In this document: positions 9,095-62,059 of the stretch, one piece after another
How positions within the stretch are numbered: position 1 is the stretch's first letter
Layout of the letters: each line of letters starts with the position of its first letter
Assembly: GCA_964016885.1 (NCBI GenBank)
Contig: OZ024741.1
Location: 218,488,001-218,552,000, forward strand
DNA length: 64,000 nucleotides
Direction of reading: 5' to 3'
From: Eledone cirrhosa
Lineage: Eukaryota
Made by a program: the position numbers and the translations under genes
The notes under the pieces: generated by a model
What the model saw: the letters and a program-made list of their open reading frames with translations, nothing else
Database searches by the model: none
Told to the model about the DNA's origin: nothing

Positions 9095-9770
9095 ATAAAA
9101 GTAACGAAACAAACGGTTATTAAACAATTTTCTAAATAAATTAAAAAATGATTAAATAATCACCTGTTCAGATGCTGTTACCGACGGTTTCATCATTCCG
9201 AAAGATTGGAAATCCAACGAATTTCCAATGGAAAGAAATGAATCTTCAGACCGCCCTATTTCCACGCTATAAGGTATCTAGCCTAATAGCAAGTAAATAT
9301 TATGCTCCCTGCCCAACGCATGCGGTCAAGCCGGTAAAGTGGCACACACGCAAATCAGGTCGCTGATAAAAGCTGGATATTATAAACATGTCGAATTGCC
9401 ACTAAAATTAGCAGCATTATTCAACGTTTTGTTCTCTACATAAGGAGAATAAATTATAGAAGTGGATGGATACTTCAACAGGTACAATGTACTTGTAGAA
9501 ATATTCAAGTTGTTTATTGGAAATTCGTTGGATTTCCAATCTTTCGGAATGATGAAACCGTCGGTAACAGCATCTGAACAGGTGATTATTTAATAATTTT
9601 TTAATTTATTTAGAAAATTGTTTAATAACCGTTTGTTTCGCTACTTTTATATTGTTCTGGTATCTCGAATTAGTGCCATTGAACCACATGTATTATAAAC
9701 AACTTGAATATTTCTACAAGTACATTGTACCTGTTGAAGTATCCATCCACTTCTATAATTTATTATAGCT
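9095..9770. mobile_element. Non-coding fold-back insert with HHR and two inverted duplications
   Basis: 9095-9229 inverted at 9516-9652; 9449-9517 inverted at 9694-9762. Minus-strand HHR 9174-9254: GCGGT-CTGAAGA-TTCATT..AATGAT-GAAACCGTCGGTA-ACAGC. Confidence 0.7.
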
Positions 9771-11504
9771 CCTTTGTAATATACTATATTCTAGTACTTT
9801 AGTACTAAACTGCTCTTTAGCATCGTGTCACAATTTGTTTTCTCTAATTAAGGGCCCCTTTATTTCATATGCTACCGGTCCTTCTCTAACCAACCCCATC
9901 CGGTGCTGTCAGACACACGCTTAGAAATATGACACACACACACACACATACATACACATACACACACACAGACATACACACATACACTCACAAACACACA
10001 CACATACACACAAACACAACCACACATACATACATACACACACGCATACACACACACTCACAAACACATACACATACACACACATGCACACACACTCACA
10101 AACACACACACACATACACACACTCACACACACACACAGAACCACACATACATTACATTACATTGCCAAATGATAAATATACAGATATCTACACAAATTT
10201 GCGCCTGTATAAATTCCACTTAAAAACACACATACACAAACCCCGTATATATATATATATATGGTACCAGTAAAAATTATATATATATATATATATATAT
10301 ATATATATATATATATATATATATATATATATATATATATATATATATATATATGTGTGTGTGTGTGTGTGTCTCTGTATGCATGTATGTATGTACATAT
10401 GTACGTATGTATATATGTATGTGTATATATGTATGTATGTGTAAATATGTATATATGTATATATGTATATATATATATGTATATATGTGATCATATGTAT
10501 ATATGTAGGTATATTTATTATATGTATATGTGTGGTCATATGTATGTATATATGTGTATATATTATATGTGTATATATGTGATCATATAATATATATATA
10601 TATATATATATATATATGTATGTGATCATATGTATATATATATATTTATATATTATATGTATATATGTGGTCATATGTATGTATATGTATTATATGTATG
10701 TATATGATCATATGTATATATATATATATATATATTATATGTATATATGTGATCATATGTATATATATTATATGTATATGTGTGGTCATATGTATGTATA
10801 TATGTGTATACATCATGTGTATATATGTGGTCATATGTATATATACATATATATATTATATGTATATATGTGGTCATATATATATATATATATATATATT
10901 ATATGTATATATGTGGTCATATGTATATATATATGATCACATATATACATATAATATATATGTATATATATTATATGTATATATGTGATCATATGTATAT
11001 ATATGTATGTATATATATTATATGTATGTATATATATCATATGTATATATATGGTCATATGTATATATATATATATATATATATATATATATATATATAT
11101 ATATATATGTTTGTATGTGATCATATGTGGTAGTTCAGTATAGAATGTTTATTTCCTGACGCATGTTTTTACAATACAATATATGTTTGAAATGTTTTTG
11201 ATATATAGATAAACCATATCTAAAATTGGCATCCCGAGTACACATACACACAAGCGCATAGACACGCACACACACACATACATACACACACACACACACA
11301 CACACACATACACACATACATACATACATACACACATACATATATATACACACACACACACATACATACATACACAAACACACACACATACATACACACA
11401 TACACCCATATATATTTGTATATATACACATATATGTATATTTATACATATATATATATATACACACATATATATATACATATACATACATATATATATA
11501 TGTA

Positions 11505-11690
11505 TAACAAAATAAGGTGCTGAGGTTACATATATCGTTTAATCATAATAATTAGTTCTACGGTTCTCCATGCAATTGAGATGTCCTTCATGCATTTGCT
11601 CTTGATTAGGAGAATGGTATCCTCAGATGAAAATCGATATGTTTGATATGTCGCTGGCAAGGAAAACACACGCCCTAATGCCTGTGTGCC
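11505..11690 (-). mobile_element. Short TA-embedded repeat with degenerate HHR-like motif (family also at 40440-40832)
   Basis: High similarity to 40537-40700. Minus strand TCAT-CTGAGGA..TTCTC..GAGAA..AGAACTAATTATT-ATGA. Confidence 0.55.
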
Positions 11691-58611: not shown

Positions 58612-60458
58612 TCTATAATATTATAAAGCTGAGTGCCATGTGTATTATGTATGTATCCTACACATCTCCCTATAGTTTGTTAGCTTTACTCTCTCCGTCG
58701 CTCTTTCCTCTCTCTATAATAGATCATTCCCCCTCTCTATAATTTAAATGCTTTACTCTCTCTGTCGCTCTTCACTCTCTAATAAGATAAAGCTGAGCGT
58801 CGTCTCTCTCTTTCTCACTCTTTCACCCTCTCTATAATTTAACTGCTTTACTCTCTCTGTCGCTCTTCACTCTCTAATATTATAAAGCTGAGCGTCGTCT
58901 CTCTCTCTCCCTCTTTTACCCTCTCTATAATTTAAATGCTTTACTCTCTCTGTCACTCTTCACTCTCTAATATTATAAAGCTGAGCGTCGTCTCTCTCTC
59001 TCTCTCTCTTTCACCCTCTCTATAATTTAACTGCTTTACTCTCTGTCTCTCTTCACTCTCTATATGACAACACTCTTTTACTTTCCGATTCTACCTTCAA
59101 TATATCAATATATACCCAGGTTCTGCTGCACGTCGGGCTGAGGGGGCCAAACTCCTCAAATACCGGTCAAATAACACTCTCCAACAAGTTTACGGTCGTA
59201 CCCCTGGCAGTGGAGATTCTGGTGTCCTCAGCCCCAAGGCTACCCCCTTACTCACCACCATAGGCGCTGAGCTAGCCAGCCGCAGGTGTGAACGCCGCGA
59301 GCTGGAATGGCTTTTCCAGCGCGTCTCCCTTGCCGTCCTCCGTGGAAACGCCTTCTCCATTCTGTCCGCCGGGGCTGTGGGTGGATCCCATCGCGTACCG
59401 TTGTAGTTGTTGTATACAGATATTTATTCATCAATCCCATTATTTATATCATATATCAACATAGAGATGAGCCTCGTATGAATGTTTCTTTCTAAAGGAT
59501 AACCTCCTTCAAATTCGGTCAACACACAAGCAGGTAATACATACATCAAAAGGCAACCCTCTAGAGAGACAGAGAGTAAAAGAGACAGATTAGGAAAACT
59601 ACACACACACACATCTAAAGAGAGAGAGAGAGAGAGAGAGAGAGAGAGAGAGAGAGAGAGAGAGGAGAGCGAGAGAGACAGGGAAAGAGAAACAGAGGTA
59701 CGGGCAAGCAGGTAATACATACATCTAAAATCATTTGGATACAAATATCATAATATAATGGTTGCAGAACGAAAATACAGACAAATATAATAATGTATGT
59801 ATCCCACACACTTTTTCTGTCGTCGATCGCATAAGTAACACACACACACACACACACACACACACACACACACACACACACACACACACACACACACACA
59901 CACACACACACACACACACATACTTTCACACCTGATTTCGCCAATTGCCGGATAACATAAAAATAAAACACACAGACACACACATGGACATACACACATA
60001 CACAAACACACATACACATACACAGACACACACACACATATCTATACTTTATGTATGTATGTATGCATGCATGTATGCATGTAAGATCATTCCCCCTCTC
60101 TATAATTTAACTGCTTTACTCTCTCTGTCGCTCTTCACTCTCTATATGACAACACTGTTTTAGTTTCTGTATCCCCCTTCAATATATACACAAAGTGAGG
60201 AGAGAGAGATTTAGAGAACGATTAGGAAAACTACACACACATATCTACAGAGAGAGACAGAAAAAGAGAGGGAGGGGAAAGGAGAGAGATAGGCCGTTAG
60301 ACAGAGAGAGATACAATTAAAGTGTTAGTTATTCAGAGAGAGAGAGAGAGAGAGAGAGTCGGAAGGACAATGTGACACGAAAGGGGGTGTGGTATCTTTG
60401 CAGTGCAGTGGTGGGGGCAGGTATACCTAGCCGGGCGCCAGCCGGACGGGCCAGCTAG
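58612..60458 (+). mobile_element. Non-autonomous Helitron with internal ~100-bp tandem repeats and a nested CRE fragment
   Basis: A|TCTATAATATTATAAAGCTGAG start, GC-rich hairpin 60430-60452, CTAG|T end. Confidence 0.7.
59116..59450 (+). mobile_element. CRE-clade non-LTR 3' fragment (RLE)
   Basis: Manual translation: AARRAEGAKLLKY / VPLAVEILG..LEWLFQRVSLAVLRGNA. Confidence 0.75.
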
Positions 60459-61752
60459 TATACATATATAGATTAAAATAACAGATTAAAGTTTAAGCAA
60501 AGAATCGTTGCTTTCACCCTTAACGGGATCTTCTGAAACTAAAAATATCAATCTGTGAACGCAGAAGTAAATATTTCGAAAAGTGTTGCAACCGAAGGAA
60601 AACAGGAAGACGATACTTTGGTTCGTGAAGATGTTCCCTGGCAATGAACGGAAAATAGCGAACATTATACGTCATCAATGTTCGTCAGAATGTTGTAATG
60701 CAGACAGCCAGGCATTCAGACAGATATTATAAGAGCGCGACGGAGATGGATAACCGACGCCTAACACCCCTTTAACAACAGAACATTGAAAAATAAAAGC
60801 TGCAGTTAATATCTTTAGACCGGAAGGAATATATAAATGCAAGTTTGAAGTCAATCGGAGTAGAAATGTGGATTTGTATAGACTTTGCAAAAATGAGAAC
60901 ACACACACAGACAACTACAGTTTTATATATATATATATATATATATATATATATATATATATATATATATATATATATATATATATATATATATATATAT
61001 ATATATATATGTGTGTGTGTGTGTGTGTGTGTGTGTGTGTGTGTGTGTGTGTGTGTGTGTGTGTGTGTGTGTGTGTGTACTATCCAGGAAGCTCCAACCA
61101 TTAAGGTTGTCTTTTTTCCGGGTATGTCAATATTTATTTATAAAACAAATCTGTATTTTATCTGATGAAAGCGCACGATAATTTGCCTTGGTTGCCCTTG
61201 AAATATCTATAATCAAATAAATATGGTTTTATAAATATAGTTTCCATTTATTAATATATGGTGTATTTAATCCACTAGCTTGTTGAGTGCTTTATATCAG
61301 TTATAAAAATGTTTAAGCTTGTTGAATCCCAACAAATTAAATATAAGCTCTGCACATATGTATATATATATATATATATATGTAACCGAACTCTCGAGGT
61401 TCGATTCATCGTAGCAGCTGATGCCAACATTTTTTCCCTTCTTTAAGGAGTTGTAATCGCTGCAGATAATAATAGTTTTTTTTTATTATACAGAAACAAG
61501 GTAATATGACGGCTGCAGTTTGATAACGCCTGTCTTCCCCATAACAGTGGTTGGTGTAGGTCAGCGGTTGGTTGAATGATCTTTTCTGAGTGTTTTGTTT
61601 TACGTGTTAAACTAATATATTCCTTCCGTATACTGTACCATTTGTGTTGTTATTTCTGTTTACGTTTACCTGTTACACATATATATATATATATATGCGT
61701 GTGCATATGTTTATGTATATATCTATATGCATGCATATATATATATATATAT

Positions 61753-62059
61753 ATTGTTATACTTGGGGAGGATCATATTGTTATAATATTGCCAGAAATA
61801 ATGACAGAACATACTCACTGTCTGGTTAATTTTCGCTTCTGATTCTTTTATATCTCCATTGTTAATTTATCTGGCAATCAATGTTTATCACTGATTGACC
61901 AACGGTTAAAAATACAGATATAAATATATATATATATAGTCTATCAAAGTTCTTTCGTCGCACATCATCAGTGGTGCTATTATGTTTCCTCCTATCGTAA
62001 TGTCTACGCCAATATTTGTTTCGACACACGATTTCATATCAAAAACCTTACAAAACAAT
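61753..62059. mobile_element. PLE family B pLTR fold-back (inverted short-end arm with HHR-like motif, then forward tail)
   Basis: 61753-62010 is the reverse complement of about 39945-40225; 62010-62059 is the tail seen inverted at 39300-39350. Confidence 0.75.

Follow-up and report, generated by a model that had tools for sequence, protein, structure and literature searches.

How can an insert end on both sides in the same terminus, in inverted orientation, and carry an extra tail on one side only? The question is raised by a window of 64 kb (the whole stretch of DNA analysed; positions 218488001-218552000 of contig OZ024741.1 in a 3.0-Gb assembly of Eledone cirrhosa), which contains many TA tracts at high density and a series of inserts associated with them. 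The insert end without extension is named S (short) and the end carrying a family-specific tail is named T. The inserts are Penelope-like elements (PLE; families A, B, D and E, the first two referred to as PLE-A and PLE-B) and non-coding tandem units with a hammerhead ribozyme (families C and F). The answer that we regard as probable is that coupled twin priming on a single RNA template gives two-armed copies their pair of one short and one tailed end.

The pairing of the ends was counted across the genome. PLE-A has at least 11,497 exact S ends adjoining TA and 6,540 forward T ends adjoining TA, about 1:1 (the forward count is used, the reverse one being inflated by a variable gap). When two exact 17-nucleotide (nt) ends are separated by a gap of at most 150 nt (inserts up to 184 bp), there are 1509 S-T, 17 S-S and 2 T-T pairs, and the S-T pairs are divided equally between the two orientations (746/763). 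For family G, with a gap of at most 300 nt (inserts up to 334 bp), the numbers are 144, 7 and 1, and the orientations 76/68. The independent choice of each end would yield, at any detection rate, 2*sqrt(SS*TT) mixed pairs, which is 11.7 for PLE-A and 5.3 for family G; reversed-pattern controls yield 0. Among the printed matches, at least five of the PLE-A S-S pairs and one T-T pair are two neighbouring inserts with a TA tract between them. These exact-pair counts cover short inserts. For longer PLE-A inserts, 74 S-indexed ends were followed; their loci represent 70 of the 100 places that head the listing and comprise two regions chosen as S-S candidates. The partner is T in 47, S in 1 and neither in 17, and 9 were left unassigned. 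Among two-armed inserts, the combination of one short and one tailed end holds in about 95-99% of cases.

An evenly spaced 800-kb sample contains many further families in which unlike ends are paired recurrently, as well as true S-S inserts in families D and G and single-armed copies. Two S-S candidate pairs (L129 and L130) turned out to be separate inserts, and several same-class end pairs found de novo (classes 16 and 21) are internal TA tracts. Three TA-flanked stretches (L138:1913-2132, L210:2122-2347 and L176:8810-9683) end alike on the left and on the right (classes 18 and 12) and are either S-S exceptions or miniature inverted-repeat transposable elements (MITEs). At L176:2650-3170, L242 and L249 the flanks are mirrored across TA tracts as perfect larger palindromes, which suggests nested insertion or inverted duplication after insertion.

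The same architecture is seen in the window, where self-alignment confirms the inverted arms of the named inserts. The first PLE-A copy (15099-19811) consists of an S arm on the minus strand (15099-16001) and a T arm on the plus strand (15995-19811), with a 60-nt tail on the right; the arms are 97.4% identical over 907 nt, and the broken open reading frame (ORF) for reverse transcriptase (RT) and GIY-YIG endonuclease (EN) lies in the T arm. In the second copy (52263-58119) the 60-nt tail is on the left, the T arm is minus (52263-53176) and the S arm plus (53177-58119); the latter is a partial tandem of pseudo-long terminal repeat (pLTR), ORF and pLTR, and the arms are 100% identical. PLE-B also changes side. 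One insert (39290-40224) has its T arm on the left (minus, 39290-39358) and a plus S arm with a hammerhead core near 39986 and the end of a GIY-YIG-type ORF, whereas the other (61755-62059) has a minus S arm on the left and a short plus T arm on the right, from ~62010. At the lower extreme, a PLE-A-like footprint of 61 bp (20194-20254) joins a 33-nt T arm (minus) and a 32-nt S arm (plus) with an overlap of 4 nt. The preliminary description of the window had claimed inverted ends with exactly one tail, a tail side that varies within a family and a genuine two-ended footprint at 20194-20254. All three stand, the first both at the named inserts and genome-wide, although "exactly one" is not absolute. 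It had also read two termini at 27288-27330; a 41-bp fragment of PLE-B-like tail is indeed present there between TA tracts (27289-27329, plus), and an inverted S remnant is possible, the case being ambiguous because its first 5-7 nt agree with an inverted S end and nearly with the template itself.

The ends fall at discrete places of the template. For PLE-A, 45 of 51 tail ends are at two positions 2 nt apart, and those of PLE-B occupy two positions with ~8-11 nt between them. At the S and T template sites scored, the TA register continues for at least 2 nt in 14/14 and for 4 nt in 9/14; the two-sided chance per site is 0.40 and 0.10, respectively, and P is about 1e-6. The S sites are AT-rich, as the target is. 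The predicted RNA fold of the S/T region has a z of -0.19, with no special structure.

The extent of the arms bears on their origin. In the S-T inserts (51 simple ones of 59), the arm that reaches further upstream is S in 25 and T in 16, and the two are equal in 10; eight of the 51 T arms do not include the S site. Many T arms extend 500-3450 nt upstream, as in the window at 15995-19811. A complementary DNA (cDNA) started at T could, by self-priming, fold and copy back to S, with later central deletions giving rise to the footprints (an idea of PMC3846280). Such a fold-back would explain the palindromic centres with equal arm ends (10/51 inserts), the identical alleles of the arms and the microhomology described below. 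It requires the S arm to be contained in the T arm, but S is longer in 25/51 inserts, by up to ~2 kb, and makes up a 4.9-kb arm in the PLE-A copy at 52263-58119. Since the S arm may be the longer one, or the T arm may lack S, fold-back of T-primed cDNA alone fails, barring large deletions, and we consider it very improbable.

The AT-rich S sites would also suit an account in which both arms begin at T and the endonuclease of the element cuts one of them back to S (an idea found in PMC8557442). The EN of D. virilis requires the tail for recognition (cited in PMC11167929), which fits as well. Trimming would, however, leave T-T as the common exception, while S-S outnumbers T-T in both counts (17 vs 2; 7 vs 1). 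In addition, RT starts at both sites in vitro (PMC11167929), the eight T arms mentioned above have no S site, and S arms adjoin TA tracts directly. This account, too, is held to be very improbable.

The alleles of the arms provide a further constraint. At polymorphic sites, the two arms of one insert agree in 108/109 comparisons, and the distance is 0.6% within versus 4.6% between inserts (n=14 long enough). The shared alleles support one source haplotype for both arms, and are to be read at that level. Two templates of one source would fit them equally well: two RNA copies of one locus, or two pLTR copies of a tandem transcript, with an asymmetric complex that fixes S and T. Two templates would also explain the overlap of the arms without strand displacement, partial tandems do exist (52263-58119), and the arms of the family F insert at L280 may come from two related RNAs. 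On the other hand, the simple version, with S from the 3' pLTR and T from the 5' pLTR, expects short T arms, and many reach 500-3450 nt; two free RNAs offer no obvious cause for an S-T coupling of 95-99%. Two templates are thus an unlikely origin, albeit one that keeps some weight.

At the point where the arms meet, the clean junctions of the footprints overlap by at least 2 nt in 14/20 cases, against 5.1 simulated (0/5000 simulations). The preliminary description had proposed to tabulate end pairing, orientation and junction microhomology, and this tabulation returns discrete ends, an S-T excess and the overlap just given. PLE-A footprints have a minimum size of 35 bp, and 23/30 footprint S arms stop 26-35 nt from S. 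Another group of arm ends (13/102) lies 250-269 nt upstream of S, and this cluster is possibly the 5' end of the RNA. The cut site of the hammerhead as a shared arm end is unsupported, that bin holding 4/102 ends against 13 for the one at 250-269 nt. In the window, arm ends gather at ~57830-57870, 250-290 nt upstream of S, just downstream of a GCGCATGCGC-type palindrome in the PLE-A pLTR, which we take to resemble an NRF1 site; the region may mark the pLTR promoter and the transcript start.

Palindromic chimeras of assembly or long reads would produce inverted arms as well, and one copy of the window (52263-58119) has arms that are 100% identical. Such an artefact is hardly conceivable here: the ends are fixed per family, the arms are asymmetric and have diverged in older copies, and the strand-switch joints are found in Illumina raw reads of three samples. 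These are restriction-site associated DNA (RAD-seq) reads of samples X9-X11, whose species label is that of X1 and possibly not that of the assembly. Each sample has 2,374-2,684 reads running from S into (AT)n. Joints are seen at 53829/53884 (4-nt overlap) and 53831/53856 (5 nt), matching junction types of the assembly (53829/53884 corresponds to L214/L238), with few read starts per joint, as RAD-seq gives. The T end is poorly readable in these reads, since position 53907, where a restriction site probably lies, is the end of most molecules; in contigs of X1, (AT)n follows T.

Structure, pairing ratios, shared alleles, arm extents and microhomology are read directly from the DNA; coupled twin priming would bring them about as follows. 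A PLE protein, likely a dimer, would introduce a nick into each strand of a (TA)n tract, and the two 3'-OH groups would prime reverse transcription at different sites: one at S, the other at T, which lies about 57-110 nt downstream. In both cases, 2-4 nt of pairing in the TA register would help. Both cDNAs would then run upstream over the same RNA segment, and each would end at a variable point, ~15 nt to many kb away. Subsequently, they would anneal by microhomology or at a palindrome and be filled in. With a symmetric (TA)n target, the tail would come to lie on either side equally often. Mobilisation in trans would account for the non-coding units C and F, whose tandem arms likely stem from circular or multimeric RNA. 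The dimer, the single RNA molecule, the assignment of strands and the circles are what we infer. Priming of both strands at two fixed AT-containing sites, with variable joining, had been proposed in the preliminary description and fits every test run, its "same RNA" being narrowed to the same source haplotype. More tentative, and in our view somewhat doubtful, is a stricter form in which PLE integration would be an obligately asymmetric double target-primed reverse transcription (TPRT): one dimer and one RNA, S on one strand and T on the other, the segment copied twice without being destroyed, and the same machinery copying circles of retrozymes (hammerhead-bearing non-coding retroelements) into the genome by double rolling-circle synthesis.

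Several observations weigh against coupled twin priming on one RNA. The work on the Poseidon element of Anolis carolinensis (PMC11167929) saw no bulk strand difference in start site and no homology between template and target, while here an overlap of 2-4 nt is the rule. Gene conversion could have produced the shared alleles, as could sibling RNAs from a single locus, and the conserved 60 nt adjoining S are uninformative, with a mean distance of 2.2% both within and between inserts. Families F and B have more than two end positions. Ten of the 30 footprints have junctions that are not clean and were excluded from the microhomology count, and 2-3 pairs are maybe duplicates of one event. In the family F insert at L280, most of the left arm belongs to another, related sequence that has ~40 nt in common with F. 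The S-S exceptions amount to ~1% in PLE-A and ~5% in G, and the inserts at L122, L151 and L176 are truly S-S. Many family E copies are single-armed, and 17/74 PLE-A short ends have no recognised partner end, three of them seeming by eye to have ragged or tiny tails. Because of these partnerless ends, the true S-S cases and the single-armed copies, the pairing rule applies to two-armed inserts and is not universal.

The proposed process resembles the twin priming of L1, in which the second strand primes on the RNA and the inversion is joined by microhomology. In L1, the two arms cover separate parts of the template and the position of the second site varies, whereas here the starts are fixed and a segment is copied twice.

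Among PLE, a one-sided tail on two inverted pLTRs, on either side, and the targeting of microsatellites are published (PMC8557442, PMC3846280). For canonical EN+ PLE with the Neptune/Nematis-type linker, tails of 30-40 nt are described, compared with ~57-110 nt here, and the available text of these accounts treats the tail qualitatively, without pairing statistics or 35-60-bp footprints (PMC8557442, PMC3846280). The closest likeness is with PAc, the Anolis Poseidon element (Frangieh 2024): in vitro it cuts and extends both strands, the tail is delimited by two internal sites at which RT starts, the target is AT-rich and a dimer is predicted (PMC11167929). As both-strand extension and two RT starts were already published there, the mechanism offered in the preliminary description was largely anticipated. 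The available text of that paper is silent on pairing within an insertion, for which an S-T coupling of 95-99% with a 2-4-nt TA overlap is found here (PMC11167929). No published pairing rule or statistic for PLE ends was found in the literature, where older subscription papers on Penelope tails and supplements may state one. What is described is thus mostly a known PLE signature; the measured coupling, the overlapping arms of the same source and the extension to retrozyme-like units are what the present analysis adds.

The assignment to PLE is based on the coding regions. The PLE-A ORF encodes an RT followed by a C-terminal GIY-YIG-type endonuclease with C..C..H..H, and in the window it spans 53836-57623 (plus) in two overlapping frames (53803-54957 and 54873-57623). 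The RT has DKG (DKSG), D-box and YVDD motifs and a weak RVT_1 Pfam match (E 3e-4, under the cut-off); the C-terminus matches GIY-YIG-type ORFs in tblastn, with no Pfam GIY-YIG match of its own. A linker CX4CxxC before the EN (CIDKKCITC at residue 790) corresponds to the CX2-5CxxC that defines the Neptune/Nematis clades (PMC8557442), a likeness that rests on the linker, the clade not being fixed by phylogeny. The pLTR is delimited by the partial tandem (53177-53861 = 57439-58123). Counted from the S end, the PLE-A ATG lies 22 nt inward, and the ORF then continues directly through the 60-nt tail, as is likewise described for Adineta Pen2a (PMC3846280). An Asn/Thr-rich low-complexity stretch at the frame-shift site (16420-16960 and 54540-55000) recalls the N-rich inserts of Adineta Penelopes (PMC3846280). 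PLE-B, judged by 54% identity in the EN region, is a relative of PLE-A. The family D tail continues into an RT ORF with FDIVDFYPS / GSFD / YRDDGL-type motifs, and that of family E into a PLE ORF whose N-terminus shares 39% identity with D (E 3e-24) and is without match in a Pfam scan; EN was not seen in D or E. Accordingly, the tail is the ORF start or leader in families A, D and E. For families G, H and I, no RT-EN ORF is tied to the ends in the loci examined, H and I not having been searched genome-wide.

Upstream of S, families A, D, E, F and G have type I hammerhead cores (20 sites in a descriptor scan, versus 0-2 in 20 Markov controls), and those of families B, C, H and I, also upstream of S, were read by eye. 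In the PLE-A pLTR, a minimal type I motif is at 57920-57964 (plus), with a predicted cut 161 nt upstream of S, and others are at 53663 (+), 52517 (-), 19550 (+) and 15300 (-). Rfam gave no hammerhead among the 150 of 280 matches listed, which are sub-threshold microRNA (miRNA) matches, mostly on microsatellites.

Families C and F are non-coding. Their units of 457 and 541 bp, with longest open frames of 69 and 70 aa, respectively, form tandem arrays with one type I hammerhead per unit. On these sequence features they correspond to non-LTR retrozymes, which have the same kind of organisation. The metazoan ones are proposed to be PLE-derived and spread by circular RNA, with units of ~300-390 bp described (PMC7229834; bioRxiv 10.64898/2026.07.22.740005). 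Families C and F have, in addition, PLE short and tail ends on inverted arms; in the text available, the word "inverted" does not occur in PMC7229834, nor "tail" in bioRxiv 10.64898/2026.07.22.740005. The long tandem arms make a circular RNA template plausible. A TA-flanked family C insert of 12.9 kb (C1:156425692-156438640, L355-L357) runs from an S end through ~19 minus units, an inversion and ~9 plus units to a T end. All 26 scored units carry two variants missing at two other loci, and a third variant is scattered over 5 units, out of register. Rolling-circle copying from both primers is a candidate origin that would fit, and tandem expansion after insertion would fit too. In the window, the family C insert has a minus S arm (9095-9517) and a plus T arm (9516-~9764) and is flanked on the right by no TA tract. 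It had been delimited as 9095-9693; the S/T pair is confirmed, while the true end is ~9764 and the tail ~111 nt. The family F insert (26736-27262) has its T end on the left; its boundary had been misread, the right end being non-canonical, 213 nt from T, whereas most other short ends of the family stop 84 nt from T. A further F insert (L280:330-592), with a tandem of ~4-5 units and T on the right, is possibly a two-RNA chimera or a nested insertion.

The window contains other inserts with the same ends. The family D insert (12381-13582) has S on the left and T on the right, a 70-nt tail and a hammerhead core at 13415 (+). Family E is present at 26218-26551 (T left, S right, hammerhead-like cores at 26373 (-) and 26492 (+)) and at 41906-42121 (S left, T right), with tails of ~86-90 nt, and family G at 37814-38064 (core at 37930 (+)) and 50752-51027 (core at 50960 (-)), both T left and S right with tails of ~67-72 nt. 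Families H (40440-40832, T left with a tail of ~89 nt, S right) and I (40849-41108, S left, T right with a tail of ~64 nt) each have a hammerhead-like core seen by eye. Further type I cores in repeats at 29973 (-), 38172 (-), 38300 (-) and 61162 (+) likely belong to more PLE or retrozyme families. Pieces of other GIY-YIG-bearing PLE (Pfam GIY-YIG above the cut-off) are at 7693-8835 (-) and 63280-63758 (-), one of them split by a long TA/TG tract. An ORF fragment of 529 aa resembling a non-LTR RT/endonuclease (27865-29454 (-)) has no relation to the S/T inserts. Long minisatellite or low-complexity arrays occupy 32628-36029, 43916-45713 (53-bp period), 21011-22221 and 24007-25249. An abundant family resembling short interspersed nuclear elements, often in inverted pairs, is at 13840-14484, 19932-20065, 20669-20957, 23482-23682, 29331-29595, 36005-36547, 38643-38760 and 49805-50039.

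The origin of tandem and inverted PLE insertions has been called unresolved (PMC8557442, PMC11167929). The S-T coupling, the arms of the same source and the arm geometry speak against fold-back and sharpen the published result of two start sites to a specific model that can be tested. In annotation, PLE inserts with inverted S/T ends can be mistaken for MITEs or miRNA hairpins. At the level of sequence, mobilisation of retrozyme-like arrays by PLE proteins is supported by the PLE-type ends that these arrays carry. If true, asymmetric double TPRT would physically connect PLE proteins with animal retrozymes, a link missing so far, and its integration chemistry would set it apart among retroelements.

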